Source: a virus
Virus record (IMG/VR): IMGVR_UViG_3300005336_000001
Span: 29,561 to 93,560 of that record
DNA: 64,000 nucleotides
Strand: one strand, 5' to 3'
How positions within the stretch are numbered: the first letter of the stretch is position 1; each line of letters starts with the position of its first letter. Shown in pieces: positions 10,428-57,155 of the stretch. The notes under the pieces are model-generated. The model was not told the origin of the DNA, searched no databases, and saw nothing but the letters and a program-made list of their open reading frames with translations. The position numbers and the translations under genes are program-made.

Positions 10428-11094
10428 GTGTTTTCCATTTTGACCAGAGGTAGGCGACACCAAGCACAAATCCAACGCCCTGTGCAGCCCAGATACGTGG
10501 ATCAATCTCAAGTTGGGTGATAAAGCCCTCACTGGCGATCAACTCGCCGGCAAGCCAGCCTAGCAGCGCGGCCCCCGCCCAAATAAGGATGGGGAATTTG
10601 TTCAGGATCATGGTTATCAAGGTAGCCCCAGTAACCACTAGCGGGATACTGACAGCCAAACCAATGGCAAGAAGGAGGACGTTGCCTTGTGCAACAGCAG
10701 CCACCGCCACCATGTTATCCACACTCATGACAATATCAGCCAACACGATGATTCTGATTGCTGCAAAGAGTTTGTCAGAAGACTTTACGTCACTCTCACC
10801 ATCATCAGGCAGACACATCTTGATGGCTACAAAGAGCAATGCCAACCCGCCAGCAAGTTTGAGGTAAGGAAGTGTCATTAGTGTGGACACAACGCCTGTA
10901 GCGGCAATACGCAACAAGACAGCACTCAGGGCACCTAAGATAATACCCCAAAAGCGTTGACGCTCAGGCAGGCCACGGCATGCCATAGCTATAACCAGTG
11001 CATTGTCACCAGACAATAGTGCATCTATCCAAATGACTTTGCCAATAGCCAGCCAAAAGGCTGGGTCGTGCAGTTCCATTTCTAACCACGGCAT
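10411..11094 (-). CDS. TerC/YjbE-family integral membrane protein
   Basis: IDALLSGDNALVIA and ADIVMSVDNMVAVA motifs; multiple TM segments. Confidence 0.92.
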   Translation of the reverse strand: MPWLEMELHDPAFWLAIGKVIWIDALLSGDNALVIAMACRGLPERQRFWGIILGALSAVLLRIAATGVVSTLMTLPYLKLAGGLALLFVAIKMCLPDDGESDVKSSDKLFAAIRIIVLADIVMSVDNMVAVAAVAQGNVLLLAIGLAVSIPLVVTGATLITMILNKFPILIWAGAALLGWLAGELIASEGFITQLEIDPRIWAAQGVGFVLGVAYLWSKWKTHELSH

Positions 11095-39163: not shown

Positions 39164-39194
39164 GAAAAACTGGGGATGATTGCTCATCCCCAGT
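39164..39194 (-). terminator. Rho-independent terminator
   Basis: ACUGGGGAUGA-GCAA-UCAUCCCCAGU followed by UUUUU. Confidence 0.85.
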
Positions 39195-39585: not shown

Positions 39586-40096
39586 GTGGTCTTTTCCTTT
39601 TGTGAGCATACCGATACAGGAAGGTCCTGCTCACAACCCTCCTGTTGAAGCGTAATGCTTCTCACTGAGGCTGATTAAAGCCTCAGGACAGAAACATTAT
39701 CTGATCTGCTGATATAGAAGGATGTTTCCAATTGTGATTCCAATAAAGATGTCAAATAAGGCAGCAATCATGAACCACAACATGATTTGCAATGCTCGTT
39801 TATCATTACTCATAGATAGACCCTTTCTGCCCCGGCTCATTGGAGCCTGTGCACGCAAGATTGTGATTAGTTGCTTTGGGGCAACGTTTGTTCCCGCAGT
39901 TGCGACACACCACCATGTGAACGGCAAGCTCGTTGCGCTCTTTGATACATTTGTGACAACCACATGCACCATTTGTGAGGGAAGCAAATGTACGTTCTTG
40001 CTTTTGCTGCATTTTCTTTAGACAGTCCAAGGCAACCTCCTATTAGGATTAATACTTTTGTGGTAGTTGAGAGTTCTCCAAAAGGAGGACCCCATT

Positions 40097-40393
40097 ATGT
40101 GGGATTGGTTCCAACGGAAGCGACGAGGGCACATCCTTCGCCGCATCGAACGAAAGGTGAATTGGCTCATGTCCAGTTTTGATGACCTTGCGGCAGCGCA
40201 AGCAGATACGCTTACCAAAGTGGCGGCAGTGAAGACTGACGTCGAAACTTTGCTTGCCCAGATCAAAAACATTCCGCCTGCTGGCTTAACGCCAGAGCAA
40301 CAGGCAGCGTTGGATCAGGCTGTGACCACTGCACAGAGCATCAATACTGCGCTCTCTGCGGTAGACACGGAGGTTCATCCTCCAGCGGCCTAA
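40097..40393 (+). CDS. Ala-rich helical protein on the opposite strand
   Basis: AAAGGAGG RBS; 98 aa. Confidence 0.7.
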   Translation: MWDWFQRKRRGHILRRIERKVNWLMSSFDDLAAAQADTLTKVAAVKTDVETLLAQIKNIPPAGLTPEQQAALDQAVTTAQSINTALSAVDTEVHPPAA

Positions 40394-40397
40394 TGCA

Positions 40398-40670
40398 CAA
40401 AAATGGCCACTGAGGAAACAGGAGGAGAATCCCAAACCTCAGTGGCCACCTTCTGCTGCACTTATAATGGTGAAAGGACCGAACCCATCATAAATGCGCG
40501 AACCGACGCCTTGGTAGGTTTCACTGTGAAGTCAAACCCGGAGGGCCAACAGTGACCACAGAACCTACCCTTGATTTATTCACCCGTTGACGTCGCGCGG
40601 CTGTAACTGATCTCACCGTCACTGCGGCCTCGGGTCCAAACTATGCGTAAACTTTTGACACCGCAACAGG
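40398..40670 (-). ncRNA. Putative multi-hairpin sRNA with anti-Shine-Dalgarno loops
   Basis: Gap without a long ORF; three stem-loops; the last is a 12-bp stem followed by UUUUU whose loop holds UUCUCCUCCUGUUU. Confidence 0.55.
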
Positions 40671-41068
40671 AAATCAAAAGTCTTTGGATTTGAACGCTCT
40701 TGATGCGGCCTTTTCAGCCAGTTCCTCATATGAATAGGGCCCAATCAATTGGCCCACTGGTTCATCATCTTCATCAATGAACTGGTAGTAATATCCAAGC
40801 ATTTGGTCCCCGTCTTCATCAAAGAAAGGCATTTCAGAGGGGACAAACTCATGGATAAGGGCATTGCATACCGCCATCATGTTTCCTTCATTTTACAGCC
40901 TTTACCAAGGCTGACTGTTGGCCGACGACGGCGTATATCAAATACCTCCCACCGCCTACGGCTATTTTAGTTTTGGCAAGCGCCTCAACTTCCGCAAGGG
41001 ATTTACATTCATCCCTCGTATAATGCCCGACACCGTCTTTCTTGACGAGAGTAAAGTAGTCGGCATGT

Positions 41069-41380
41069 TCACAGAACCAATCGTCCCTTTCTTGATACGT
41101 TTTGAAGTCTGGCATCAGCTTCCCTCCTTTTGATTAACAGTGCTTGATAAATTGCCCAACCATGCGGACCGGCGATTGCTTTGCACTTTGTAAGATGCGG
41201 CTTGAGTAAGTCGATCCATAACCCATACTGACTGTTTATTTCAGGAATTTCACCGCTGAATAGCCAGCATAAGTATGGTTTTCCTCTCGCTCTTCTATAA
41301 TTAGGCACGACGCGACCTTGATCATACCAGTGCTTGAGTGTGCTACAGGCATCTTCAATTATGTCAGTGAATGTTTCCAT
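41069..41380 (-). CDS. GPH-motif family protein
   Basis: AIAGPHGWAIYQALLIKR; AGGAG RBS. Confidence 0.75.
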   Translation of the reverse strand: METFTDIIEDACSTLKHWYDQGRVVPNYRRARGKPYLCWLFSGEIPEINSQYGLWIDLLKPHLTKCKAIAGPHGWAIYQALLIKRREADARLQNVSRKGRLVL

Positions 41381-41480
41381 GTTCAGCTCCTGAAAATTGA
41401 CAAACGAAAGCCCCCTCACCAGCATCACTTGGCGAGGGGGCAGATTAGTTCAGGTGCTCGGGAGGCTAAACCTAAACTAA

Positions 41481-42011
41481 TTACTTCTTCATCTTCAGGA
41501 AATAACGTGTGACCGAACGTTGGCCTTCACGCTCCTCCTTAACACGCTTGACCTCATGGCCAGCTTCTTCAAGGCCATTGAGGACGTTCAGTTGGACCGA
41601 ACCAACCGCTTCCTTGACCTCTTCAAGAGTAGCACCCGCTTTGGCGGCATAGAGCGCCACAGCTTGAGACTTGGCGCTGCCTTCACGGAAGCCCCATGCG
41701 TCCTTCTTCACTCCCTCGGCCTTTGGCTTGGCAACCTTGGGCTTTTCTGACCCTTTAGCGGCCTTTACCGTGGCCTTGGGTGCGGCCTTGGCCTTGGCCG
41801 CTACCTTGACCGCCTTTGCCACCTTAGGCTTGCCAGCGGCCTTTACAGGCGGTTTAGCCGCCCCATTTGCCTTGACCAGTGCCTTTGCCTTTGCCTTGGC
41901 CTTTGGGGCCGTCTCTTCCATTGCTTCACTCATGTACATAAACTCTGCTTTGTTGTTGGCATCCCGTTTAAGGAAAGTGGGGATGTCAAGGGGTTCAGGC
42001 ACTGTGCCCAT
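41481..42011 (-). CDS. Histone H1-like K/A-rich protein with C-terminal winged-helix-like domain
   Basis: KAKAKA/PKVAKA tracts; DAWGFREGSAK..GATLEEVKE. Confidence 0.75.
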   Translation of the reverse strand: MGTVPEPLDIPTFLKRDANNKAEFMYMSEAMEETAPKAKAKAKALVKANGAAKPPVKAAGKPKVAKAVKVAAKAKAAPKATVKAAKGSEKPKVAKPKAEGVKKDAWGFREGSAKSQAVALYAAKAGATLEEVKEAVGSVQLNVLNGLEEAGHEVKRVKEEREGQRSVTRYFLKMKK

Positions 42012-42411
42012 TACTAGGTTCCCTTTCCTCAGATTACAGAGCTAAAGAACTGGAACCGCTAAGTCAAGCGGGATTCCAATTCATTTAGAGGTTTTTGGTT
42101 TCAAACTATTTTGGATTACTTTACTTCGTTGAGAATTGGCTCACCTTTGGCCAAAATCTCTCGAGCACCCTCAAGTCCGCCCTCTACACCTTCACCACAA
42201 AGCGTGCAATTAGGTTCTGCAATGCCTTGCTCCACTTGATCCTTGAGGCATTCAAAGACCTCAAGCCCATCATCTGTGCCGGGCAAGATATCATTGCATA
42301 TGGGACATTTACGACAATAATTCATGTCTTTTGTTGACATGTTTCTCCCCCCTGTTGAAGTGTAGTGCTTCCCGGAGGGCTGACCTAAGCCAGCCCTCGA
42401 AGCTGCACTCG

Positions 42412-42678
42412 TTACTTTTTCAGCTTCTGACGACCTTCAGATGTAAGGGGAAGGCTCGTAGCCCCCATTGCAACAGCAGCCGCAGCAACTGTCGCAAATT
42501 GCGGCCTACGGGTCTTACCCTTGAACCAATTACGAAGGGTAGAAGTAGTGGGGCCACCTCCAGCAGTGATTTCACCATCTGACATGTCAGTGTCACGCTT
42601 GAGAGTGCGCAACACATCGATAACCGGGTCCTTATCCACAAAGGGATAAGCCTTATAACGCAAGAATCCTCTTGCCAT
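42412..42678 (-). CDS. XRE/Cro-like HTH protein
   Basis: PTTSTLRNWFKGKTRRPQFATV. Confidence 0.7.
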   Translation of the reverse strand: MARGFLRYKAYPFVDKDPVIDVLRTLKRDTDMSDGEITAGGGPTTSTLRNWFKGKTRRPQFATVAAAAVAMGATSLPLTSEGRQKLKK

Positions 42679-42758
42679 ACGTTCTCTCTCCTGTTTTAAC
42701 ACTGAAGCCTTTAGAGCTTCGTGCTGGGGCTTGAGAAGCCCCAGTGTCGAAGCTCTAA

Positions 42759-43097
42759 TCAGACCCTTACGAAATGTCCACGTGAACGTGGCTTTGCCAG
42801 CTTAGCCTCCTTCATGGCCTTTACATAATGATTGTATGCGGAGGCAGAAGCGCCGAGTTGGGTAAGGTGTTGTTTGATGTTCTTAGAAGTGAACACAGTG
42901 TCCTTGGGAAGCTTCTCAACGTACTTGAGAAACATATCCTTGTAGGATGAAGCATTGGTTTCAGCCTTGACAACGCCCTTCTCAACTGTGGCATTCACCA
43001 CCGGCTGCGGCGGCTCCATGTTCAACACCATGCCTTGCACGGCGTGAAGGACTTTTGACAACTTGTTGTCCTCCACAAAAAACGTAACTCTGAACAT
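42759..43097 (-). CDS. Hypothetical protein, possible C-terminal winged helix
   Basis: Strong RBS element; 112 aa. Confidence 0.65.
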   Translation of the reverse strand: MFRVTFFVEDNKLSKVLHAVQGMVLNMEPPQPVVNATVEKGVVKAETNASSYKDMFLKYVEKLPKDTVFTSKNIKQHLTQLGASASAYNHYVKAMKEAKLAKPRSRGHFVRV

Positions 43098-43170
43098 ATT
43101 TTCTCCTCCTGTTGGTTGAAGCGTTAATGCTTCTGACTACGCTGGTTTGATCCAGCGTAGGGTAGAAACA

Positions 43171-43533
43171 TTACTCGTCGTCATCAACTTCAGTCAGCTC
43201 GTCCTTGCGGACACGCTTCTTGACATTTAGTGTGGCCGAAAGGTTCAAGAGCTCGAATTTGAGATCGATCAGATCAGTATATTCTCGTGCCCTGTACCAG
43301 ATATTGTGATTGACCTCCTTGCCGGATTTTTTGCTGACAAGGTAGGTTTTGTACCATGACTTGGACTTGGACGGCTCACCTTCCACATCTTTGATTTTTT
43401 CGTATACGTGAACTTCACGTGAGGGGGAAACATCAATCACCCATTTGGGCTTTTCAAGAAATGCTTCAGGCAATGTGAGAGCAAATTTCTCAGCTTCAAC
43501 ACGCTCAGTGACAACGTTGGTAGTTTTTCGCAT
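43171..43533 (-). CDS. Hypothetical protein
   Basis: Strong RBS element. Confidence 0.65.
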   Translation of the reverse strand: MRKTTNVVTERVEAEKFALTLPEAFLEKPKWVIDVSPSREVHVYEKIKDVEGEPSKSKSWYKTYLVSKKSGKEVNHNIWYRAREYTDLIDLKFELLNLSATLNVKKRVRKDELTEVDDDE

Positions 43534-43596
43534 ATTCTCCTCCTGTTGGAGCACTATTGCTCACCAACACCCCGCGTGCGGGATGCGGCGTGAACA

Positions 43597-44439
43597 TTAG
43601 GTTACCGTCATAGAACCGGATACTTCCAACTTTGGAAACGGCTCAGGGGATGAGCCCTGATTGCGCCACGTCAAGCTCTTGACGTCCCTTTTATAAAAGG
43701 CGGCATTTGCCGCCTTTATCATCAGGGCAATTGTGACTACCGGATCCTTTTTCCTCGTGTTGTCGCTTGCAAAGTACATGCGCAACCTGAAGAATGGATC
43801 GTTCATGCTGATACCTGCCGGGTTTTCCAAAGTATGTACCATCCGTTCAGCCAATTCAGGGCTGCGGTTGGCCAAAATATAATAGAAAAACCCAACAATG
43901 GAGGGGTTTGCCAAACCCCTCAAACGGCTGACACGTTCAATCGCTCGTTCAACACCGGGGTTATTGTCGTACATCAATTCGATGTCTGAATTTTCAATCC
44001 GGTTTTGCGGTGAACGATAGTTCTCAATTGTTCCACGCTGCCATCGTATCAGCCACTGGAAAGCTGCTGACATGTAGCTTCGGTAACGCCCCGCACCTTT
44101 CAATGCAAGGATGTCAGAGCCGGAACGTGCTTTACGTAGAGTATCAATGGTGGCAAATGCGTCCGCTTCAATTCCCTCAACAATGAGGGTTTCAACAGGC
44201 ACATTTGCTTCCACGATGGCCCACAACCTGTGTTGTCCATCCAACACGTCTTTCTTCACTGAGAACTTGATAGTGTCCCCATTGAAACGCCATTTCCCTG
44301 CAATGATCTGTGCAGCAATTCGCTTGACGTGTTGCTCGTTCAACGGCCTGTTGTGGGTATTGTATTCAAGATACTGCATGGCCATCTCAGGCGTCAGAAG
44401 TATCTTTCTTGGATTGCCGTTGGTGGGAGACCCACTCAT
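43597..44439 (-). CDS. ParB/Srx-like DGQHR-domain protein
   Basis: TPEMA..NTHNRPL..GKW..I.F..LDGQHRLWAI. Confidence 0.8.
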   Translation of the reverse strand: MSGSPTNGNPRKILLTPEMAMQYLEYNTHNRPLNEQHVKRIAAQIIAGKWRFNGDTIKFSVKKDVLDGQHRLWAIVEANVPVETLIVEGIEADAFATIDTLRKARSGSDILALKGAGRYRSYMSAAFQWLIRWQRGTIENYRSPQNRIENSDIELMYDNNPGVERAIERVSRLRGLANPSIVGFFYYILANRSPELAERMVHTLENPAGISMNDPFFRLRMYFASDNTRKKDPVVTIALMIKAANAAFYKRDVKSLTWRNQGSSPEPFPKLEVSGSMTVT

Positions 44440-44905
44440 GTTCAAACTCCATAAGCCACGCAGTTGCAGTTTCAAGAAGCTCGTTGACGGTGCCCTCACG
44501 CCCCCTGTTGCGCAAGACCACCCCAACCATTTCTTTTGGACTTGGAAGGCTTGTTAGGCTCTTCAGTGCGGGGCGCAAGTCACCCCACAGAGCCGTGTCT
44601 TGCTCAGACACGGTCATGAATTTCTCAGAACGTATTCCAGCGAAGCGTCGATCAAGCACTTCCTTGATCTGTTCTTCAGTCATATGCTTTTTGACCCTTT
44701 TGTAGATATCACTTAGGCCATAAGCACCGGACTTGAACTGAGCTATTTCATCTTCAGTACCGTACAAGATGATCACACGAGCTTTGTTTACCGAACCGCG
44801 CGAAAGACCTGCTTCCTCAGCAACCTGTGTCAAAGGTACCTTGGTCGTACCGATGGTCTTTTGCACGGCAGACATGACCTTTACAGGGTCATATTTCCAT
44901 ACCAT
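44387..44905 (-). CDS. Putative HTH DNA-binding protein
   Basis: LTQVAEEAGLSRGSVNKARVI. Confidence 0.6.
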   Translation of the reverse strand: MVWKYDPVKVMSAVQKTIGTTKVPLTQVAEEAGLSRGSVNKARVIILYGTEDEIAQFKSGAYGLSDIYKRVKKHMTEEQIKEVLDRRFAGIRSEKFMTVSEQDTALWGDLRPALKSLTSLPSPKEMVGVVLRNRGREGTVNELLETATAWLMEFEHEWVSHQRQSKKDTSDA

Positions 44906-45148
44906 GTTTTCTCCTCCTGTTTTGAGCGTAGATGCTCACCACTGCCGCTCGTAAGCGGCAGGACGTGAACAACTATTTTTCAACATAGCTTTTCAAGCTA
45001 AGTCGAATTTCATCAGCACTTTTTTCGTCACTTTGATTTGGGAACACATAATCATATGATCCCATTTCAAAGATTCGATTTAAAAGTTCAAGATGACGTT
45101 TGGCTTGAAGCGGGGTAAATTCAAGCCACAGAGGCGGCTTATTTCCCA

Positions 45149-46333
45149 TTAACCCGTCTCTGACACATGGATGCTGGTGCCAAACGGGGCACGTGCAACC
45201 AGTTGGTCGAAATATTGTGACGGACCGTAGACTGCCCACATGACTGGGCAACCGGGGTCTTCACCATATTCGTTAACCTGAAGGTCAGTCAGGTAGATGA
45301 CGCAACTGGCATCAGGATGATTTTTGCTGAGCCAATTAAACGAGTCACGGAAATCAGTTCCGCCACCCGTGTATTGACCAATGGTAACCATATCGCCCTG
45401 CACGAATTCATCAACGTGTTGAACCCGTGTGTCGGCGTAGGCCACCACGATCATGTCAGCGGTGCCCTGATCCAACGCACCACCGACTTCACTGAGCATT
45501 TCAAGCGCCATCTTGTGACTGACGGAACCTGAAACATCAATAAAGAACACCAACTTGTTGAGCCTGTCTGACACATAGCCCGGCATCAGAACACCCAATG
45601 CCGCCGAGCGCCTGTTGGGGCGAGCCCAACTGGTAGCCTTTGACATTGATTGATCGATGAAGCGCATGGTCAGATCACGCCATGACACCTTTGGTTTGCT
45701 CAATTCCGCGATCAAGTTCCTGAGTGATCCCGGTATTTGGCCAGCATTTTGTCCTGCGGCAACCTGTACCGCAGCGCGCACTGACATTTCCCATTCATGC
45801 TTAGTTGCTTCCTTCTTATCAGCATTGCCGGGAGCATCCATCACACCACCACACCCACCGGGATCGGTGCCGTCACCAAAGCTATCCACGTACACTTTTT
45901 CAAAAGTGTCATAGATTTCTTCAGTGGTCATTCCCTTGTACTTCTTGTCAATGCAACACTTGAAGTTTTTTCCACTAATCTCACGATCATGGATTAACTT
46001 GAAGCCTGCCTCCTGAAGATCAAGGTTGATGACGAAATCACCTGCAATGTTCCACGCTTTGGGATCGCGCGTACCACGGCGAGTGAAATGCTGGAAGCAA
46101 CAGTGCATGACTTCGTGCGCTACCAAGAACTCCAACTCACGATCGTCCAATTGATTGACGAAATTGGGATTGTAGAACATGGACACGCCGTCAACACCGG
46201 CGGTTGGCAGATCATAACTTTCCACCAACCGCAATTGTAGTGCAAGGAAGCCAAAGAAACCGTTGCTCACCAGCAAACTTGTGCGGGCGGACACCATTTT
46301 CTCTAAAGCTCCTTTGTCCTTTATCTTAGCCAT
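45149..46333 (-). CDS. DUF2201-type metallopeptidase-vWA fusion
   Basis: TAGVDG, AHEVMH (HExxH), NIAGDFVIN; IDVSGS, GGTDF, YLTD. Confidence 0.9.
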   Translation of the reverse strand: MAKIKDKGALEKMVSARTSLLVSNGFFGFLALQLRLVESYDLPTAGVDGVSMFYNPNFVNQLDDRELEFLVAHEVMHCCFQHFTRRGTRDPKAWNIAGDFVINLDLQEAGFKLIHDREISGKNFKCCIDKKYKGMTTEEIYDTFEKVYVDSFGDGTDPGGCGGVMDAPGNADKKEATKHEWEMSVRAAVQVAAGQNAGQIPGSLRNLIAELSKPKVSWRDLTMRFIDQSMSKATSWARPNRRSAALGVLMPGYVSDRLNKLVFFIDVSGSVSHKMALEMLSEVGGALDQGTADMIVVAYADTRVQHVDEFVQGDMVTIGQYTGGGTDFRDSFNWLSKNHPDASCVIYLTDLQVNEYGEDPGCPVMWAVYGPSQYFDQLVARAPFGTSIHVSETG

Positions 46334-46467
46334 ATTTTCTCCTCCTGTTTTTGAAGCATAACACTTCACTAAAAAGATGAGCCCCCACACAGAGGTAGGT
46401 CAAACTTGTATGGGGGCGATGCCTTACGTGTTTCCACGTCTTACAGGCACATCTTTTTAAAGCAGAG

Positions 46468-46818
46468 TTAGCGTAGTTCGAAACTCACACGTTCATCCGT
46501 GTCATTACGGATGAATTGCTCATAGATAGAAGGTTTTTCCTCTTTGAGCTTCTTTTGATCAAGCCGATCAATGGGGATCAATTTCAGGATAGCCTTGAAC
46601 AAAGTTCCCTTCAATTCACCCTCATCGTGCTTAAGTTTGTCCTTGATTTCGTTCTTGATGGACTTGTCAAGCACCTCGCATGTTTTGGCCACAGGTTTAA
46701 GGCGTGCGGCCAAATCGATCTTGTCTTTGAGTGTCATGGTGTCAAGTTTCTTGGAAAAGCCTTCCAAGATATCGGCCATGTCAGCAAGGTCCATTTCTAC
46801 TGCTGGTTTCAAGTGCAT
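46468..46818 (-). CDS. Hypothetical protein
   Basis: RBS element; RLDQKKLKEEKPSIYEQF. Confidence 0.65.
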   Translation of the reverse strand: MHLKPAVEMDLADMADILEGFSKKLDTMTLKDKIDLAARLKPVAKTCEVLDKSIKNEIKDKLKHDEGELKGTLFKAILKLIPIDRLDQKKLKEEKPSIYEQFIRNDTDERVSFELR

Positions 46819-46882
46819 TCTCCTCCTGTTGAAGTTTGATACTTCCTGCTGCGGTGAGATTAGTCACCGCAGAGTGGAAACA

Positions 46883-47518
46883 TCATTTGGTCAAGTAAAG
46901 GAATTTAGTGCCGGGGGACTTCAGTTTGATCAAGATTTTGAGCATGTCATTGATCAGACGCTTTAGCCCTTTCAAATCCTTGACGTGAGCCATGTAGTCG
47001 CATTTAACGTCAATGGACTCATTAAGTTTGACATTACAGTAAAACTCATTGCCAGCCTCAAGGTTTTTGAGAGCTTCTTCAAGCTCCTTACGCTTGTCGG
47101 CAATGCCAGCAAGATATGTCTTGCGACGCTGGCTGGACCATTTGCTGAAGATGTATTCACGCATGGCGTCATTCCATTGTTCAGTAGTGATGGCTTTCGC
47201 CGAACCCAATTGGGCAATGGCAATCTTACGCAAGCCACGACTACGCTCCATCTTGGTCTTTTCAGAGTTCTGGCAACCATCCTCGTCATTCCAATAACAG
47301 GAATCATTGAGGCCAATCTTCATGTCACGGATTGCGCGCAATACACACTTTGGGTTATCCGTGTGAGGTTCACCCATGGCATATGCCACGGCTGCTTCTA
47401 CACACATCTGGCCCGGCTGAGGGCTGCCCACACCATGGGATAACCCTGCATCGACAACCTTCAGCACTTTGAGAACAAGTGCTTTGGTTATGGGTGTGTT
47501 TTTGACTTTCTTAGCCAT
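46883..47518 (-). CDS. Hypothetical protein
   Basis: RBS element; MCVEAAVAY..EPHTDNPKCV. Confidence 0.7.
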   Translation of the reverse strand: MAKKVKNTPITKALVLKVLKVVDAGLSHGVGSPQPGQMCVEAAVAYAMGEPHTDNPKCVLRAIRDMKIGLNDSCYWNDEDGCQNSEKTKMERSRGLRKIAIAQLGSAKAITTEQWNDAMREYIFSKWSSQRRKTYLAGIADKRKELEEALKNLEAGNEFYCNVKLNESIDVKCDYMAHVKDLKGLKRLINDMLKILIKLKSPGTKFLYLTK

Positions 47519-47592
47519 AGAAATCTCCTCCTGTTGACGAAGCATTAGTGCTTCTCACATGCCCGGCTGTGAACCGGGCATGGACAGAAGGA

Positions 47593-48618
47593 CTAAATGT
47601 GCAGCGACTTGTTGTTCTTGGCCCACGTCACAAACGTGGGGGTATCGCACAACGTGCTGTCACGCTTGGTAGCGTCCAGCACAACCACGGTGCTGAAGTC
47701 CGCACCAAAACCATCCCGGTTGATGTATTTGTAGATGGCCGGGAAAGTGTCCTTGGTCGTGCTGCGTGCTAACAACGCACTGAGGGCGTACCGGCCAGCC
47801 GGTGCATCGGGGATATCAGCTTTCATCGGGTTGGACAAGATGTCCTCCAAGTCCGGCAACTCAGCCGTCTTGAAGTAGGTCTCAACCTCCAACGCCGCGC
47901 CCTCACCGACAATAGCTGCCACCAGTTTGAAACGCATGCCCTCCGGTGCGTCGAACACCTTCGAAGCACTTGCCCAAGAACGCGGTGACGGGAAGGCCAA
48001 CAAGTCAGCTCCTTCCATGCTGTGGATGAGGTTGGGACGGTACTTGATGAAACCGATCAACATCGGATCGATACCATTCAAGTTCGCCCAATGCCCCCAG
48101 CATTCAGCATCAGCCCGGATGTGAACATGTGCGAAGCGGTTTGCCAAAGCTGATGACAGCGATTGCGCCGCAGCACGATCTTCCCTCCGGTTGCCAGCGG
48201 CTACCGGCCACCACCCATCGGGTAACTTGTAATCGCCGATCTGACGATCCAAGATCACCCGGTAGATGCATGACTGCAACTGACGCGGTGCGTCACTGAG
48301 TTCGTCAAACGCGATAATGCCCTTCGGGCCATCACGGTTCACGTCAGGCCAGAAGGCAGCCCGCAACCATACTGCCAGTTTTTTCTCGAGGTCAGGCACC
48401 GGGATGCCTGTGAGATCTTCAGGCAACATGGTGCCCACACGGACGTCGATAAAGCCGGACTCATCCTCAGCAGCAAGCTGTTTCATGATGTCCGACTTGC
48501 CGATGCCCGGCGCACTGTGGAAGTATGTGGGAATGTTTTTTGACCTGAAGATGCGGGCAATATCCTTTGCCGTCTCAATGGTCTCAGTGCGTACCCCACT
48601 TGTTACGTTTTCACTCAT
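47593..48618 (-). CDS. MoxR-like AAA+ ATPase
   Basis: SAPGIGKS, DLTGIP, FDEL, AAGNR, ALANRF, SPRSW. Confidence 0.9.
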   Translation of the reverse strand: MSENVTSGVRTETIETAKDIARIFRSKNIPTYFHSAPGIGKSDIMKQLAAEDESGFIDVRVGTMLPEDLTGIPVPDLEKKLAVWLRAAFWPDVNRDGPKGIIAFDELSDAPRQLQSCIYRVILDRQIGDYKLPDGWWPVAAGNRREDRAAAQSLSSALANRFAHVHIRADAECWGHWANLNGIDPMLIGFIKYRPNLIHSMEGADLLAFPSPRSWASASKVFDAPEGMRFKLVAAIVGEGAALEVETYFKTAELPDLEDILSNPMKADIPDAPAGRYALSALLARSTTKDTFPAIYKYINRDGFGADFSTVVVLDATKRDSTLCDTPTFVTWAKNNKSLHI

Positions 48619-48698
48619 AGTTCTCTCCTCCTGTTTAGGAATGAAGCATTGTCGCTTCTTACTACTGTCACCTTTATGGCGACAGTAGGGTAGAAACG

Positions 48699-49034
48699 TC
48701 ACTTCATCGCAAGTTCGCTTTCACGGATCAGATCAGATCTGATCACGTCTGGGAGTGCCAACCGTGCACGTTCCATTGCCGCTCCGTAAGTACGGGGATG
48801 GTTCATGGCAATGTCGTTCACGACCTGTGGGATGACAAAATCATCATCATCGATGGTGGCTTCGGTCAAGCCAACCAACACTTTCCGTGCTTTTGGGAAA
48901 GCAGCTTTCAACGATTGAGCCAGCAAACATGAACGAGGATTGCCCGCATCATAGATGCCGTCGTAAGGTTTTGCCTGAAGCCATTTGATCAGGCTCTCCA
49001 CGTCCTGACGTGTGGCCGGTTTTTCATATACCAT
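48699..49034 (-). CDS. Hypothetical protein
   Basis: RBS element. Confidence 0.65.
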   Translation of the reverse strand: MVYEKPATRQDVESLIKWLQAKPYDGIYDAGNPRSCLLAQSLKAAFPKARKVLVGLTEATIDDDDFVIPQVVNDIAMNHPRTYGAAMERARLALPDVIRSDLIRESELAMK

Positions 49035-49233
49035 AGTTCTCCTCCTGTTAGATGCGGTAATGCATCTTTGAGCGCACCCCGTAGGATGCGCCCCGTAGAT
49101 GAACTACTTCAGTTGTATTCTGATGATGTATGGTAAGCGAACACCCGCCACCATCCTGCGAACGCCATCGTGTGGCACGTAGACGTATTTGCCAAAACAA
49201 AGCCAAACACTGTATGTCATGACGATGCCCTTA

Positions 49234-50109
49234 TCACTTCATGTAGCTTTGGACTTTCTTCAGGATCTTGTCGGCCTTGCTGATAGTTTCAGCACGCACC
49301 TTGTTATCCGCACGCAGAATTTCAGGTGAGTGCTCAACCAGATCAGAGCGTAACTGCTTTGCCAATTCAGTGATGCGTGGATCATCAGTGACATTCAGAA
49401 CTGGAATGAGGTTGACCAGTTCATCAATGTTGTACACCAGCGAACTGTGGATGGTGCCTTCAGCCTTGTTGCCATCCTTGGATGGCACGTAAGCCTTAAG
49501 CTTTTCAGTCATGTGCCGAACGAGCCCCTCAACCCGTCCAAAGACGTCCTTCATGGCATTTTCCAGACGCTCATTGGTGCGCCGTTCAATGTCCTTGATG
49601 ATGGCCTTGGTGGATTCATCGCTGAGTTTGGCACGGAAATCCTGTGCCTGTGGCAGCGGCTTGACCTCGACGTCGAAGTCAAACTTGGCCTCAAGCACAC
49701 TCACGTCAGGGTAATCGTCCTGATTGAACATGTCACCCAGCCGCGTTTTGCCTTCCTTGATTGCATTGGGCAAATCATCAAGGAAAGCTTTCACTTCCTT
49801 CTCAATGGCAATGCGGCAATCACGCATCTTTTTGGTGTACTCGATGTACCCCGTGTTGCTGAGGATGCGCGTACCATCATCCTCCCACGGCAACGTGTAC
49901 AGCCGATGCACCTTGCGGGCATTGCTGTGCGCCGTGGAAACGCCACTGAAGAAACTGGCCTTGACCAACCGCTTGTTATATCGGCCTGCTTCTTTCTCAG
50001 CCTTGAAGTCAGCATTGACGGAATCAGTGACCTCTCGGTCCACCATCATGCCTGACCATGACTTGATATGGAGCGATGAAAGCATCGCCCTTTCAGCTAA
50101 TTTGCTCAT
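49234..50109 (-). CDS. DUF3150-like helical protein
   Basis: L.I..WSG..D..V..K.L..TLPW..G.R.L..F..DYP pattern; next to MoxR/vWA genes. Confidence 0.6.
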   Translation of the reverse strand: MSKLAERAMLSSLHIKSWSGMMVDREVTDSVNADFKAEKEAGRYNKRLVKASFFSGVSTAHSNARKVHRLYTLPWEDDGTRILSNTGYIEYTKKMRDCRIAIEKEVKAFLDDLPNAIKEGKTRLGDMFNQDDYPDVSVLEAKFDFDVEVKPLPQAQDFRAKLSDESTKAIIKDIERRTNERLENAMKDVFGRVEGLVRHMTEKLKAYVPSKDGNKAEGTIHSSLVYNIDELVNLIPVLNVTDDPRITELAKQLRSDLVEHSPEILRADNKVRAETISKADKILKKVQSYMK

Positions 50110-50178
50110 GGTTTTTCTCCTCCTGTTTGAAGCACAAATGCTTCCTACTATGGCCCGCAGGCCATAGAGTGGAAACAT

Positions 50179-50712
50179 TCAGTAACCAGCCTTCTCAAGC
50201 TTGGCCTGAAACTTCTTCATGGCCGCATGGAAAGGCTCAGGGTCCATGGGCTCATATGGTGGGATGTCAGTGCATAACTTATTCAACTTTCGAGTCTCAG
50301 GAGTGTTGTCCCAGTCATACATGTTTGCATCAGGAAACAAACTGCTGTAAGCCACCAGAGCTTGACCAGTTCTCAGATTGTTGATGGCATGGAGCTGCTT
50401 CATGTTGGCGGGAAATGAAGCAGGCTCCATGTAGCGTTTTTTGCCATCGGCACCCAGTGAGAAGGCCATGACACTGCCAGCGGCACAGACCGAACATATC
50501 TTGGTCTTGCTGATGGTGCTGTCACCGACAACACAGGTCAATTCCGCATTGGGCTGATACCAATCATCCATGTCGACCGCGTACTTGGTCTTCATTTTTT
50601 CCACTTTGCGGAGATCCTTCAAGGCAATGGCAACGAGCTTGCTCATGACCATGGGCAGGATGACGAGTTTCTTGGCTTTGGGTTTAGTTCTAGCTTTGGC
50701 TTTCTTAGCCAT
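50179..50712 (-). CDS. Hypothetical protein
   Basis: RBS element; DMDDW..CSVCAAG. Confidence 0.7.
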   Translation of the reverse strand: MAKKAKARTKPKAKKLVILPMVMSKLVAIALKDLRKVEKMKTKYAVDMDDWYQPNAELTCVVGDSTISKTKICSVCAAGSVMAFSLGADGKKRYMEPASFPANMKQLHAINNLRTGQALVAYSSLFPDANMYDWDNTPETRKLNKLCTDIPPYEPMDPEPFHAAMKKFQAKLEKAGY

Positions 50713-50918
50713 AATTTTTACTCCTCCTGTTTGTGGGGACGAAGCGTAATGCTTCTCACTGCGGCCACATGAGCCGCAGGACAGAAACATTAGTCAAAGT
50801 CGGTGTACTCGTCAGGTTTGCTGTCCTTGCAATAAAGGAAGTTCCCCACTAGCACCAACGCAATAGCAAAGAAGGTCATGGTGAACAGAAACGCTTCTTT
50901 TGACATGTTCTCCTCCTG

Positions 50919-51452
50919 TTAAGTTAGGCTGAAAATGTCAGCCAAGACTTGTGTGATAATTGGCAAACTGGCCTCATCGCCCGTAATTTTCCATTGATTA
51001 CGGGACACCATTTGAAGTTCGTACATGGTGTTGATATCGCCCGGCTTCCCCGTGTAGTAACCAAACTCCCTTAGGTTGATCACGAACTTTTTGTCATACC
51101 GTCTACGGAAGTGTTTCATCATCTTTTTTGAATTAAGATGGATGACTTGATAGTCCTCGTTTTCAGCAACTCTAGTAAGAAGTGCATGGCCGAAAATGCT
51201 GATGGTTTGGCGGATGAAGCGCTCACGCTTCAATGCCCTACTGGTAGCTTCAGGGTCGGCAAAGTCCCCAGATGATTTGACATGCTCAAGTTGAAACTTG
51301 AGGCAATCAGCAGCTTCTTGGCAGGACAAGAAAGGTAGCAGCCCTCTATGGAAGTCAGGTCGGCCACTGTAGCTTCGCACACACATGACAATATAATCCT
51401 GCCGTGTGGTGTTTAACTTGTCCAAATAAGTAGCGAGTGTTTTTACACTCAT
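50919..51452 (-). CDS. Hypothetical protein
   Basis: RBS element; 177 aa. Confidence 0.65.
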   Translation of the reverse strand: MSVKTLATYLDKLNTTRQDYIVMCVRSYSGRPDFHRGLLPFLSCQEAADCLKFQLEHVKSSGDFADPEATSRALKRERFIRQTISIFGHALLTRVAENEDYQVIHLNSKKMMKHFRRRYDKKFVINLREFGYYTGKPGDINTMYELQMVSRNQWKITGDEASLPIITQVLADIFSLT

Positions 51453-51516
51453 TTTCTCCTCCTGTTTTGTAGATGTTCACCACTGCCCCTCCACGTGGAG
51501 AGGCAGGACGTCAACA

Positions 51517-52002
51517 TCAGATATTATCGGCAGCCGCCACAAATTCACGGATTTGTTTGGCAACTGCAAGTTCACCTTCAGCACCAACAGGAAGTTTCCT
51601 GTTGTCGTATTTCTCTTCATATCCTTCACCGGTGAAGAGATGGTAGACAGCCCACCTGTCAATTTCAAAGAAATCACCGACGGCCTCAAAGTTATCCAAG
51701 CCGTTGAAGTAAGGCGTGAGATAGTACGCGCCTTCCGCAGACTTGAGTTTGTAGGTCAACCCTTCATCCTTGAAGATGCCACTGATGGCAGCAAAACCCA
51801 CAGCACACGCGACGGTCCCACAATCAACCGGGACAGTCTCAGTTTCAGATTTGAACAAATATGGAATATTCGTGTCATAGTCTGCGTCGGCATTGTAGCC
51901 ATCCTTGGCTGCCCACGTGCCGATATCAAATTTGATACCAGTGGGATTGGCTGCGTCCATTTCAAGGGCAGCGGCCAACCTCAACAAAAGATCTTTACGC
52001 AT
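51517..52002 (-). CDS. Hypothetical protein
   Basis: RBS element; FDIGTW..CGTVACAVG. Confidence 0.7.
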   Translation of the reverse strand: MRKDLLLRLAAALEMDAANPTGIKFDIGTWAAKDGYNADADYDTNIPYLFKSETETVPVDCGTVACAVGFAAISGIFKDEGLTYKLKSAEGAYYLTPYFNGLDNFEAVGDFFEIDRWAVYHLFTGEGYEEKYDNRKLPVGAEGELAVAKQIREFVAAADNI

Positions 52003-52079
52003 AATCATCTCCTCCTGTTTGACACTCACCATGAGTGTTCAGTCCTGCTCACCCAATTAAGGATGAGCAGAGTGAAGAC

Positions 52080-52295
52080 TCAGCCTTCGTCGAGATCAAA
52101 CGTGATACGCTTTGGCGCCCGGCCATCCAATTTGGCCTTACGCAAGTAGAGCGTACCGACGATGGCACCGTCAGCGTCAGTCTTGAGATGAACGCCGTTT
52201 TCATCCACTTCCTGATAGCGCAGTGCGCCCGGCGTAGTCTTGATCAGCTCGAAACTGACCTTGGCGATATGACCCGCATGAGTTTTCTCAGTCAT
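52080..52295 (-). CDS. Small hypothetical protein
   Basis: RBS element; TPGALRYQE..GTLYLRK. Confidence 0.7.
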   Translation of the reverse strand: MTEKTHAGHIAKVSFELIKTTPGALRYQEVDENGVHLKTDADGAIVGTLYLRKAKLDGRAPKRITFDLDEG

Positions 52296-52960
52296 GATAT
52301 TCTCCTCCTGTTGAAGCTTAATTGCTTCTTTGGACGCTGATATTTTGCCCAGCGCCCCGTAGAAACAATTTCAGAGATGTGTCAACATAGAAATGACAAA
52401 CTCCTCATTGGAACAATCATACAATCCAGCCACATATTTTGGCCGGGCATGATCTGCCCGCACACGCGCTGCAAACCGAACATTCGGCTGCCTGCGCAGC
52501 AATGAGACGGCGTTAGCTGCCGACTCAGGATTGTTGAAGCGCAACACGCTCGCAGTGCCGTCACGCTCCATGACCAACACGTTCATAGGTTCGGGCTTCA
52601 TGTGATGCTTCTCCGCTTTTTTGAATTTGGCTTCCATGATTGCCGCATCCAGATCTTGACCACGCAGGCCAGCACCAAAAAGCCGTGCACTGAGCACGGC
52701 CTCTGAATCTGTCCCATTGATGAAGTCTGTTTTGATCTGAGCAATGCGGCGGTTTACTTCTGGCCACAATGGCTCGCTAATCGTCGGCATTATCAGCCTC
52801 AAGTACACCCAAATTGTTGTACTCCGTTACCGGAATAACAATTTGAATGTTCCATTCAGCGTTGCGGACAGTTTGAGCAAAACGATCGGCTGCCTCAAAC
52901 GAGTCATAAGGGCCAACCAACCGTGTGCCATCGAACGCATTGCCAACTGCAACGACGTAC

Positions 52961-53128
52961 TTAGGCATTGGAGCGCTCCTTCTTTGGAAGCGTCAAAGTC
53001 GCCAGTTCCCACCCGCTGTTCCACTCACCGGCCAAAACCGAACCAAGTGGATGTGGGCAGTCTTGAAGTTGCTTGCCCTCTTCACAGGCACGGACTCCTT
53101 CGAGCCATGCCTTTTCAAACTCATTCAT
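52961..53128 (-). CDS. Rmf/CrpP-fold small protein (55 aa, below ORF-track cut-off)
   Basis: MNEFEKAWLEGVRACEEGKQLQDCPHPLGSVLAGEWNSGW; AGGAGGAG RBS. Confidence 0.7.
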   Translation of the reverse strand: MNEFEKAWLEGVRACEEGKQLQDCPHPLGSVLAGEWNSGWELATLTLPKKERSNA

Positions 53129-53622
53129 TTTCTCCTCCTATTACAGTCATAATGACTGACCACTACCGCTCGTAAGCGGCAGGACGTCAGCAATCATGCT
53201 TCGCTGGGATCGAGCGCAAACAAAAGGTTCGTAAGAAATGCAATGTGCATTTCATAGTGCGGATGCCACTCGTGAACCGCCCAAATGCCACCAGCCGCAC
53301 AGATGAGAACTATGCGGTAATGACGCTTGCGTACCTTCACCTTCTCAATGTGAGGCAGGTGAAGTTTGGACCAACGTACACTCTTCACGGTCCACCTCCT
53401 TTCATTGGCTGGCAGCTCGCTCGTAAGTGCCAGCGCGAGTGTTTTCAGTGAAATTCATTTGGGAGGAGATGTCCCACCAAACGATCATGAAAAAAGCCGC
53501 CCCAAGCAGAGCGGCTTTAAACAGATGCTGAACCTTTTCGCGGTTGTCCATTTCTCCTCCTGTTTCATTGAAGCGTGATTGCTTCTCACTGCCCCACGTA
53601 TGGGGCAGGACAGAAACAGTCA

Positions 53623-53973
53623 TTATTTGCCGCGCCCGTAGTAGAGCTTGGCCAATTCAGCATCCCGCTCTTCAGCGGGGATGAGCACCAACCGCGTCAG
53701 CACCGTGCCCCAGTCTTTGCCCCAAATCTTTTGGGCGGCCAGATGGTCAAAGATCAACGTGTCAGCACTGGGCACCTCTTCCATGACGGTCACATTGAAA
53801 CCGCCTTGGTTTTCTTGGTACTCATAACAGATGTGATGACCAATCAACACATCCTGCACGCCATACACTTCACGGATGATGTCCTTGAAGAGTTGACGGC
53901 TGATGGCATTCCGGTCGTTTTCCCACACGCCTTCAATTTTCACGCCACCGGGCGTGAAGTCCTGTTTGTTCAT
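53623..53973 (-). CDS. Hypothetical protein, paralogue of 6301..6606
   Basis: EVPSADTLIFDHLAAQKIWG. Confidence 0.75.
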   Translation of the reverse strand: MNKQDFTPGGVKIEGVWENDRNAISRQLFKDIIREVYGVQDVLIGHHICYEYQENQGGFNVTVMEEVPSADTLIFDHLAAQKIWGKDWGTVLTRLVLIPAEERDAELAKLYYGRGK

Positions 53974-54277
53974 TTCTCTCCTCCTGTTCAGATTAGAAGC
54001 ACAGATGCTTCTCACATGGCTGATTGCTCAGCCATGGACAGAAACATCAGTGAAGGATGCCAACCACAATGGCCAGCACGATGACCACCGAGCCAATGAT
54101 GCCAAGCATGGCAATCCAGTTGACCCGGTAAGGCTGCTCAGTGAACACATCGACCGCTTCATCAAGCTCGTCCCTGCGGTCAAGCTTGTCGTCACGGTTG
54201 GGGTCCGGCATCATGTATTCAGAACCAATCATATTTTCTCCTCCTGTTATGAAGCTTAAATGCTTCTTGCAGGGCGC

Positions 54278-54900
54278 TTATTCATCGCCCTGTGTAGAAA
54301 CATTCTTGTAGCCATGCTTTGCTGCGATGGCTTTCAAGATTGTTAGAACGTGTGGGCCTCTTGCTTGCGTAAGTGATATCCTTTTTGATATTAGATCCTC
54401 TTTACACCTGCGCCAGCTATCCAACCCATCACCCCATGGTTCATCTGGAAAACCAAAGGTTTGTGCGACTAGCAACAAAGCATCGTGCAAACTCGCCGTC
54501 TGCCCATTGGCACGTATATGTCTGAGGGCATAAATTACCCCCAACATGTAATCATCTTTTTTATCTATGGCCATTTGGGATACTTGCTCAAGTCAACCCC
54601 ACGGATGGTTGCCAGTGCGTACACCAGTATTTTTCCATGAGGGCCAGCCAATGCTTGGAGCATCAGTGCTCGTTTTGCATCACGAGGCTTTTGACCATGT
54701 GATGCAGCAGTGTGGAAGTGTTGAGATGCTGAATTGCGCCCCTTGAGATCCTTTACTTTGTATCCCAACAAGGCACGCAACACGGATGGACTTCCACGCT
54801 TGTCACCCATCCGTCTTGGCATATTGCCCAAGGCGGCATGCCAAATCTCAGTCCAATCAGCACGTTCAGGGATGTGACGTCTTGGATTACCTCTAGGCAT
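54278..54900 (-). repeat. Two GPH-motif paralogues (54278-54574, 54565-54900)
   Basis: ARGPHVLTILKAIAAKHG; LAGPHGKILVYALATIRG. Confidence 0.75.
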
Positions 54901-57155
54901 CGCCTTAACCGTCAGTGATGCGTGTGATTGGGATCGTCCACGTCCACGCCACAAGCACCGCATATCATCGGCATCTTGTTGACCAACGGGAACTGCCCTA
55001 CTGGCTTATCACACGTGGAGCAATGAATGCCCAACGTAGATGAATCCATCAGCCCAACCTCAAGGCTGTCCTTGCGACCTTCCTGCAAGCAAGACTTGCA
55101 GTGAAAATACATCTTCATTTGTTGCTCCACTTCTCGGTGATGGCATCAAATGCGGTGATGAGGTCTTCAGCATCATTGTCCTCGTCAATGCCGTACTCAA
55201 CAGCATAGCCGTCAAGGTTGTTCAACACGACAAGCATCTGATCCTTACGAGTGTCAGCATTTGCTTTTTCAAACAAAGCTAACCATTCATCTTTGCTTAT
55301 ACTCATGTTTTCTCCTCCTGTTTGAACATAGTGTTCACCACGGAAGCTTGTTAAAGCTTCCGGACGTCAACACTAAGATTTAGCATTTTTCATTTGTTCT
55401 TCAGACAACAGATGAAAACACTTGTCTCCCTCAAACGTGGACAACCAAATTTCACCAGCACCGGGCTCTTCAGAAAGAACATCTGGTTGATATTGCCCCA
55501 GATACTTTCCATCTTTGTCATATTTGTAACGGGCGGAACCATCATCCCGTTCAAACCCAGTTTTAGTCTTAATGATAAATTCACGCATGACCTTTATCCT
55601 CCTGTTGAAGCAAATGCTTCTGCCTGCACTGAGATTAGTCAGTGCAGGATAGAAACATTAACCCCTGTGTTTTTTTAACATAGGTTCAATAGTTGAGATG
55701 CCACGATGCCAAGCAGCCAATACCTCTATGCCCGTATAAGGTTGTTTAGGATACAACAACTGGGCCGCTGCCTGCAAATGTTCCACAGCTTTTAAAGTTG
55801 CTTCCAACTCATTAGCATCACCGCGTATTTCATCTACCGTAAGTGGTTTAGTCATGATCTTGATCCTCCTGTTTGATATCAATGGGTATCGGTGGAAGGC
55901 CCTAATCACATGGTGCAGCCGGTCAGTTTTGCTTCAAACACAGCATTCTAAACGACATATACCCTGCATCTATCAACAGGTGTTGGGGCCACCCTCCTGA
56001 TGCAGTCATCCCTAATCTATCGCTGGGCTTGGGGGCTGTTGGTTGCGATAGTTAGTTGACTAGGGCCTTCCGCCGATAGCCATTATTGTAATTCTTATTC
56101 CTGCAACTTTGCAGGCTTCTAAGATTGAATGATGATAGCAGGGGAAGCCGTTAAGCTTCCCCCACTTTCACCGTTTGTAAACAGGCACGGACATTGCTGT
56201 CCGTGTGCACTTGCAATTAAGCAAGTGCAAGGAGGAGATATATGTACCCATGGTTATTGAATACGCTTAATGACGTGGGCCACCTCTCATTGCCTGCAAT
56301 TAGGTTATGTATCTTTCAAGCCCTGTGACTTAACAGGGTCAACGGCTCTCATGTCCGTTGTGCTTCATTGCTTTGAAGGAGTTGATACAAATACGCAGGG
56401 GCTCTGACTTCCCTACTAGCTCACACGGTTCATGCTTTCTACTTCTAACAACAGCCATGAACGTCACATCCACGTACCCGCGCTATCTCTAGCGGCGTTG
56501 GGTTTGGAACCCCAAACGAATTATACATATGGATTGCTTGTGCAGCATTTTATATCAACCATGCTCAAAGCGCCTAGCAGGCTCATTGGTGCGGTTTGGC
56601 TTGAATTGGGGGTTAGGTAGGCCGTTGGCAAACAAACGCGCCAGCGGCCTTTAAAACACGTTATAGGCCCTATCAAACCAATGCCTTAGCTTTGGGCGCA
56701 ATAATTCCATGGGTACGGCGGCCCATTCATTGCCTGACTTTGTGCTTACCACCGCTTCCCCGTTCTAATCACCGGGTACAACGTTCCTAGGCAATTGCCC
56801 CATAGGGGGGCGTCAGACAAACTTGCGCTCAGCGCGCGGGCAAACGACCGTGACGGGGATGGATGTACGTCCTAAGTGCCACATATTTCAGCGGTAGGTT
56901 ACAGTGGAAACTGCTTGTTAGCGCAACAGCCCCAAAGTGACATTAACCCAATCGCCTGATGCAGCGGGCTTCAAGTGCCCATTTGCAGAGGAGTCATCAA
57001 CCCGTGTTTATTGACCTGTTAGGCACCGTATTTGCCACACCGCCTAAGATATGACCGGTAGCACCGGGTGCAAAATTCGCGCTCAAAGTAGGCGCAAATC
57101 ACCCGGTAGTGTGCCAACGGTAGCCCAACATAATGGCTTGCCAAGGAAGTTCATG

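Follow-up and report, generated by a model that had tools for sequence, protein, structure and literature searches.

RNase III substrates extend over about two helical turns, and internal loops in them limit cutting to one strand and one phosphodiester, and the cut leaves a protective 3' hairpin (PMC1540722). The early mRNA of the Bacillus phage SP82 is processed by RNase III as well, with a downstream product that is stabilised by a strong Shine-Dalgarno (SD)-like polypurine close to its 5' end (Hue et al., 1995, as cited in PMC3997798 and PMC7509114); more generally, 5'-terminal stem-loops and strong 5'-proximal SDs are established mRNA stabilisers (PMC3997798, PMC7509114). Here we describe a repeated element of about 75 bases that separates about twenty early genes of an uncultured phage, in the right-hand 64 kb (hereafter the window, 64,000 nt) of IMG/VR virus record IMGVR_UViG_3300005336_000001, which is 93,560 bp long and has direct terminal repeats. 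The element resembles the T7 early-mRNA signals in its position between cistrons of a long phage transcript and in its lower stem, asymmetric internal loop and length of about two turns (PMC1540722). Further points of likeness are a GC-rich upper stem of 9-10 bp with a small apical loop and the proposed product, a 3' hairpin on the upstream message. It differs from those signals in sharing no sequence similarity with them, in its copy number (at least 20 per genome, versus 10 in T7), in having a third segment that covaries with the 3' arm, and in including a stop codon and an SD as fixed parts; cleavage is in its case a proposal. With SP82 it shares a very strong SD, AGGAGGAG, near the presumed new 5' end; to our knowledge, no covarying refolding hairpin has been described for SP82.

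For a direct comparison we folded six T7 intergenic regions with RNase III sites (R0.3, R0.5, R1, R1.1, R1.3 and R3.8), using site and cleavage coordinates that we take to be those of Dunn and Studier (1983); the T7 record itself does not annotate them. All six fold as a lower stem, an asymmetric loop and a GC upper stem. With the cleavage positions so assumed, weak folds (-0.3 to -4.8 kcal/mol) result for four of the six downstream products; in the R1.1 product a short hairpin remains, 2 nt from the 5' terminus, and the fold of R3.8 (-6.0 kcal/mol) includes the start codon. A third segment matching that of the element is absent from all six sites folded, which makes the refolding segment a new feature of the phage element.

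Other described sequences share parts of this design. In mycobacteriophages, the SAS/ESAS motifs (cluster K) and CR3/CR4 (cluster M) likewise place a conserved SD-containing motif just ahead of the start codon in some of the genes (PMC3203893, PMC7953290), with an inverted repeat or stem-loop directly upstream; inserted genes bring their own copy, and the function is unknown. These motifs also occur in one orientation with a single copy on the complementary strand, comparable to the anti-SD hairpin described below. Their sequences and hosts are unrelated to ours, however: ESAS consists of a single imperfect inverted repeat of 17 bp whose spacer measures 4-13 bp, and for which alternative pairing or three-way covariation is not reported, while the element has neither the 13-bp SAS consensus nor the 17-bp ESAS inverted repeats, but CAGGAGGAG and arms of 7-10 nt that enclose a second hairpin (PMC3203893). 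SAS/ESAS is thus an analogue only. In the PeSL cassettes of T4-type phages, short regulatory repeats flank non-essential ORFans and recombination shuffles the genes (PMC2839356, PMC4122927). The present element, too, flanks variable genes, with insertions and deletions bounded by the repeats, but a PeSL consists of a sigma-70 promoter and a terminator stem-loop, whereas the element contains no sigma-70-like promoter and no terminator stem-loop (it lacks a U tract) and sits inside the transcript. Finally, synthetic insulators based on RiboJ or Csy4 are also units of about 75 nt, in which a cleavage site is followed by a hairpin directly before the ribosome-binding site and gives a uniform 5' end; the insulator hairpin is proposed to stabilise the message and to expose the ribosome-binding site (PMC6206723). 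Unlike RiboJ, which is engineered and self-cleaving, the element would be cut by a host enzyme and would form its hairpin only after refolding.

A listing of the 100 nt upstream of every strong minus-strand SD showed the same layout about 20 times at 39.6-55.7 kb. In the mRNA sense it runs from a stop codon through an upstream arm (UGUUUCU), GUC, a variable GC hairpin, UG and a middle segment (AGAAGCA), and then, after 3-6 nt, through a third segment (GCUUC), 2-12 nt, CAGGAGGAG, 5-8 nt and AUG, the element proper spanning from the upstream stop codon to the next SD. A 16-nt core pattern has 10 matches where 0.69 are expected, and a direct-repeat scan agrees. A covariance model (R1) built on a MAFFT alignment of 20 window copies gave 22 matches over the whole 93.6-kb genome, all of them on the minus strand and inside the window at 39,635-55,670, and zero elsewhere; together they make up one co-directional 16-kb block. 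A sequence-only reading of this DNA had proposed a repeated intergenic element here, and the 22 copies, far above chance, make that proposal stronger than it was put. The uniform layout it described applies to most copies, with the exception of one without a third segment (51,455-51,529) and two degenerate ones (46,338-46,378 and 52,008-52,091). In the usual long form a lower stem of 9-11 bp is followed by a 3x2 internal loop, a GC upper stem of 8-10 bp and a tetraloop, for a mean of 17.9 bp (range 12-21, and 17-21 in most copies) plus the 3x2 loop. The lower stem had been given as 7 nt; the correction comes from the stop codon, as 2-3 extra covarying pairs are formed between the nucleotides before the arm (stop-codon bases) and the loop of the small hairpin. 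The latter, of 5-7 bp, lies 2-12 nt 5' of CAGGAGGAG, and neither hairpin is followed by a U tract. No promoter hexamer pattern is present in the element, and Rfam holds no matching family, with only two chance-level matches at E up to 1 across 20 kb.

Comparison genomes were IMG/VR records recovered by pattern and protein scans. Five further records carry the element in about 60 more copies, bringing the total to more than 80 across six phages: three partial genomes have 13, 14 and 8 strong copies, a 35-kb fragment has 20, and a complete 93-kb genome has 7 diverged ones. In a plain MAFFT alignment made on sequence only (A1), 97.3% of the cells of the long hairpin are paired compared with 66.5% in shuffles, both sides change in 13 of its 15 pairs, including five of the seven lower-stem pairs, and slid registers all drop to 38-53% paired; an alignment of 55 copies (A3) gives the same picture. 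For the small hairpin, with the third segment placed in A3 by sequence only, 88.6% of cells are paired versus 81.3% in shuffles and both sides change in all six pairs, with neither measure reached in any of 500 shuffles, and copies from two genomes unused before (A4) support it again. We also used an alignment-free permutation in which partners were exchanged among copies and scored on lower-stem pairs, duplex energy and hairpin energy. For both helices, none of 5,000 permutations was as good as the true partners, and the result was the same for all copies, unique types, the window alone, and one copy for each of the 14 middle-segment types.

Positions 2-4 of the middle segment change in step with both partners, as in UGUUCAC/GUGAGCA/GCUCA at 44.9 kb, where two middle-segment positions are altered together with both partners, UUCAUCU/AGAUGCA/GCAUCU at 49.05 kb, where the arm had earlier been given as CAUCU, and GCUGAC/GUCAGUCA/UGACUG at 53.15 kb. 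The diverged genome contributes wholly different triples (e.g. CAGCAGCG/CGCUACUG/GUAGC). These three window triples were all named in the sequence-only reading, whose central claim, that the middle segment can pair upstream or downstream and that variants change all three parts, is borne out by the covariation of both helices. By this comparative evidence, the element has two mutually exclusive helices: the upstream arm and the third segment are alternative partners of the middle segment.

The same pairs indicate the strand and the molecule under selection. G.U pairs outnumber A.C pairs by 94 to 15, and by 25 to 0 in the upper stem alone; as a double-stranded DNA site would be symmetric, this asymmetry points to a sense-strand RNA and not to a DNA site. 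The alignments thus establish a family of bistable, sense-strand intercistronic RNAs. Promoters at the DNA level, the alternative that had been named at the outset, did not hold up: the block has 14 promoter-like sites where 19.5 are expected, none of them recurrent within elements, and a reading as DNA promoters or terminators was rejected on these counts, on those of terminator-like sites (25, versus 19.1 expected, sd 4.9; no clear excess) and on the pairing asymmetry. The wider possibility that the repeats are promoters, protein-binding palindromes or mobile or recombination repeats like PeSLs or MITEs, whose RNA folds are incidental, is in our view very improbable, since selection shows on one strand only, promoter hexamers and U tracts are missing, and all copies are sense-oriented and fixed between a stop codon and an SD.

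What does speak for action at the DNA level is the gene content of the relatives. Over four phages the backbone of the gene order is kept, genes found in a single phage form whole element-bounded units (six of them in the window), and a missing gene, e.g. gene 12 or 22, leaves one element behind. At orthologous junctions the variant arm types are often kept and the upper hairpins differ, while, within each of two genomes (G001 and G003), junctions that are not orthologous share upper hairpins identical over their full length, suggesting recent copying or gene conversion between elements. One group of identical complete upper hairpins lies at 9917-9990, 10385-10457 and 11238-11310 of L124 (G001), and four other groups are found in L124 and L125. 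The suggestion that the repeats serve as recombination points for cassette shuffling fits the data from this gene-order comparison, in which gain and loss occur at element boundaries. We would see this as a by-product, the repeats providing DNA-level sites where cassettes are gained, lost and homogenised between related phages.

In predicted folds the long hairpin has a mean energy of -24.5 kcal/mol, against -14.7 for the upper hairpin and -6.0 for the small hairpin. A margin of only about 3.7 kcal/mol favours the long form, which is the predicted minimum-free-energy (MFE) fold in 47 of 54 copies, with z-scores of -3.6 to -5.3 for whole-element folds. Hairpins this stable (about -24 kcal/mol), intercistronic and sense-oriented could act as a passive barrier, in which the long stem and the GC hairpin would stop exonucleases or a scanning RNase E and give each segment its own stability in the manner of REP/BIME palindromes; neither a specific cut nor a functional switch would be involved. 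This seems to us quite unlikely, as it leaves unexplained both the covariation of the third segment with the middle segment and the upkeep of a non-canonical internal loop.

That loop is GUC/UG in 33 of 55 copies, in line with its earlier description as the frequent form; across 14 sequence combinations it is non-canonical in nearly all, mostly with a purine-purine pair beside the lower stem. Together with a largely conserved lower-stem sequence, it could mark an operator for a phage RNA-binding protein, either a translational repressor or a Cas6/RegB-like endonuclease, that reads the stem/loop/stem shape and controls a class of genes; many ORFans of unknown function in the block, and one SD context common to the gene class and matched by the anti-SD hairpin loop, would suit such a protein. 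We consider it unlikely. The loop runs through those 14 combinations, the apical loops vary freely, and no nuclease or RNA-binding domain was found among the block proteins. Moreover, the three-way pairing constraint alone accounts for the conservation of the lower stem: conserved arms beside a hypervariable upper hairpin are expected if a change in an arm needs three coordinated substitutions.

Most likely, by analogy with known sites, the message would be cut at the element, each piece getting a protected end and an exposed ribosome site. In the first state, which the covariation demonstrates and which is the predicted default, the stop-proximal arm and the middle segment close a hairpin of about two helical turns; this would be a substrate of the host's RNase III, a double-strand-specific endonuclease, nicked at or near the internal loop as in T7 early mRNA. 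The upstream message would then end in a GC hairpin that blocks 3' exonucleases. In the second state, likewise demonstrated by covariation, the middle segment, freed from its upstream partner, pairs with the third segment to form the small hairpin before CAGGAGGAG. All processed messages would thereby begin alike, with a short structured 5' end and an exposed ribosome site, as with RiboJ. Several findings are consistent with this scheme. Like T7-type RNase III sites, the long form is built as stem, internal loop and stem and extends over roughly two turns, and the element fills the intercistronic gaps of a co-directional block, from stop codon to next SD in each copy, with no excess of promoters there. 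When the arm is removed in silico, the small hairpin forms and the predicted free fraction of the SD rises from 0.46 to 0.63. The closeness in energy of the two states fits a switch, and the block context fits processing. We found no T7-like RNA polymerase in the phage, a weak negative given that the control was silent everywhere.

RNase III-type processing followed by refolding is nevertheless an account that we favour tentatively, at somewhat less than an even chance of being right. The processing site proposed in the sequence-only reading stands as to sense-strand RNA, two helices, T7-type plan and intercistronic position; the cleavage in it we infer purely by analogy. T7 sites work without a refolding segment, so that processing alone needs none, and two full copies of the element lack the third segment. 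No phage-encoded RNase III was found, and the enzyme would therefore have to be the host's; the upper stem, 8-10 bp long, lies toward the short end of the range for the E. coli enzyme, for which the proximal- and distal-box antideterminant rules are defined (PMC1540722). The rise in SD exposure that the folds predict is both modest and noisy. Lastly, processing does not predict a stop codon inside the lower stem, although genome compaction could explain it. All of these weigh against the scheme.

The stop codon does sit inside the lower stem in nearly all copies: between that of the upstream open reading frame (ORF) and the arm there are 0-1 nt in 42 of the 55 copies, and no more than 4 nt in 53. 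With the stop codon built into the stem, a terminating ribosome alone would flip the switch, and no cleavage need be invoked. The ribosome ending the upstream gene would melt the lower stem and the middle segment would snap onto the third, freeing the SD from a weak CUUC:GGAG pairing and coupling downstream initiation to upstream translation; the long hairpin would reform after the ribosome leaves. The 2-3 stop-codon nucleotides that pair and covary with the small-hairpin loop, and the nearness of the two states in energy, suit this reading, and so do the folds. With the first 16 nt blocked, predicted pairing of the middle with the third segment rises from 0.14 to 0.63 and the predicted paired fraction of the SD falls from 0.57 to 0.44 (p = 0.006; 12 copies go the opposite way), and in the predicted MFE folds of the long state the CUUC of the third segment pairs with the GGAG of the SD. 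Masking of the SD by the third segment is, though, only weakly predicted by these models, and cannot be tested by comparison because the SD cannot covary. Adjacency of the stop codon may simply reflect the tight packing of the phage genome, the conserved internal loop and two-turn length are left without a role, and SDs that are already very strong have no need of coupling. On balance we regard a switch driven by termination as rather unlikely, though a serious rival; it is compatible with processing and refolding. Stimulation of readthrough or frameshifting by a hairpin after the stop codon was dropped by reasoning only, the extension having looked arbitrary by eye in one copy, and the element does not visibly encode a C-terminal protein motif.

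Table 1. Copies of the element in the window, with the parts of the exemplar (arm / middle segment / third segment; R1, covariance model)
Feature	Coordinates	Strand	Basis
Copy 1, exemplar	39635..39709	-	R1 70.4 bits, sequence, fold z = -4.6
Copy 1, stop codon UAA	39697-39699
Copy 1, upstream arm UGUUUCU	39690-39696
Copy 1, GUC	39687-39689
Copy 1, upper hairpin	39665-39686
Copy 1, UG	39663-39664
Copy 1, middle segment AGAAGCA	39656-39662
Copy 1, third segment GCUUC	39647-39651
Copy 1, SD AGGAGG	39638-39643
Variant lower stem GCUUC / GGAAGCA, 4-bp small hairpin, SD AGGGGGG	42344..42420	-	R1 47 bits, parse
Variant triple AGCUUCG / CGAAGCU / GGCUUC	42683..42767	-	R1 48.3 bits, parse
Canonical UGUUUCU / AGAAGCA / GCUUC	43102..43183	-	R1 75.5 bits
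Variant UGUUCAC / GUGAGCA / UGCUC	43536..43609	-	R1 64 bits, parse
Variant triple UGUUCAC / GUGAGCA / GCUCA	44910..44984	-	R1 74.8 bits, parse
Degenerate, small hairpin UGAAG / CUUCA and SD only, after terminator-like hairpin	46338..46378	-	R1 22.8 bits, sequence
Variant triple UGUUUCC / GGAAGUA / ACUUC	46819..46895	-	R1 69.3 bits, parse
Arm UCCUUCU / AGAAGCA / UGCUUC	47524..47605	-	R1 67.2 bits
Variant CGUUUCU / AGAAGCG / UGCUUC	48624..48711	-	R1 68.5 bits, parse
Variant triple UUCAUCU / AGAUGCA / GCAUCU, predicted MFE is the two-hairpin form	49038..49116	-	R1 59 bits, folds
Variant UGUUUCC / GGAAGCA / UGCUUC	50116..50190	-	R1 75.2 bits
Canonical	50720..50802	-	R1 69.6 bits
Long hairpin only, UGUUGAC / GUGAACA, no third segment	51455..51529	-	R1 59.3 bits, parse, small-hairpin dG 0
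Degenerate or diverged, hairpin, small hairpin ACACU / AGUGU, SD	52008..52091	-	R1 30.5 bits
Canonical arms, internal loop ACG/AA	52301..52380	-	R1 66 bits
Variant triple GCUGAC / GUCAGUCA / UGACUG	53131..53205	-	R1 58.2 bits, parse
Canonical, top model score	53553..53631	-	R1 76.5 bits
Canonical, 7-bp small hairpin	53977..54059	-	R1 65 bits, parse
Canonical, upstream ORF ends in upper-hairpin loop, not at arm	54237..54315	-	R1 67.3 bits
Variant triple UGUUGAC / GUGAACA / UGUUCA, one lower-stem G.G mismatch	55311..55385	-	R1 61 bits, parse
Canonical, first in transcription direction	55595..55670	-	R1 67.2 bits

The minus strand carries nearly all genes from about 6 kb to 64 kb, and the identifiable ones have replication functions: a family A DNA polymerase with a UDG-like domain, DnaB-like and SNF2 helicases, and an SbcC-like ATPase. 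No cultured phage is close: a megablast search gave no match, and the DNA polymerase shares about 30% identity with its counterparts in Vibrio and Edwardsiella phages. Proteins of the element block are mostly ORFans; the exceptions are a MoxR-like AAA ATPase (phrog_1297; 47596-48618, minus strand) and a DUF2201 metallopeptidase-like/VWA protein (45152-46369, minus strand), whose genes have two small genes between them, a pairing typical of MoxR-VWA systems.

Directly upstream of the first element-bearing gene lies a hairpin-rich stretch of about 700 nt with no convincing ORF (55860-56560, minus strand), which may hold the block's promoter or leader; a pair of -35 and -10 hexamers read by hand near 55.97 kb, TTGATA...TAGAAT, was dropped as a promoter, its spacer being 20 nt. 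Two strong hairpins resembling intrinsic terminators (minus strand; 41410-41441 and 39169-39194, with stems of 12 and 11 bp and T runs) probably end transcription units within or after the block. At the junction between the 116-aa and DUF2201 genes (46382-46420, minus strand), the long hairpin is replaced by a GC hairpin of 11 bp that has a loop of 15 nt and a U-rich tail, and only the small hairpin and the SD follow downstream. The motif in the 15-nt loop, TTTGACCTACCTCT, is kept in the relative G001 and is single in the window; it was rejected as a candidate promoter between genes 4 and 5, as it is not repeated.

One more hairpin may bear on the whole class of genes. At 40404-40448 (minus strand), a hairpin that resembles a terminator (11-bp stem, U run) has a 20-nt loop containing UUCUCCUCCUGUUU, the exact complement of the SD context AAACAGGAGGAGAA that is common to the element-bearing genes. 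It is the single copy in the anti-SD sense among 17 matches, the other 16 being SDs. It is kept in four related phages (also in L125 near 1390, L126 near 11954 and L127 near 1295), where the loop is conserved and the stems covary, and it may be a class-wide anti-SD regulatory RNA. A bolder and, we think, doubtful extension is that a ribosome-actuated bistable junction would set the initiation or decay of each next cistron, while the conserved anti-SD hairpin RNA would jointly shut off the class with the same SD context. This would amount to a modular, RNA-only programme that sets when and in what ratios early genes are expressed, and that other phages would have in versions of unrelated sequence.

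Hairpins between early phage genes have been known since T7, but here comparative data show a switch and not a single fold, in which one segment has two covarying partners and a fixed place, with a stop codon on one side and a standard ribosome site on the other. If the element is a processing site, it would be a natural counterpart of synthetic insulators (a cleavage site, a hairpin and a ribosome-binding site) and usable as one; if it is flipped by terminating ribosomes, it would be a new kind of device for translational coupling. In either reading, it is a compact RNA family absent from Rfam, with an experimental handle in the form of three short segments to mutate and compensate, and a concrete case of regulatory repeats that double as breakpoints for the exchange of phage gene cassettes.

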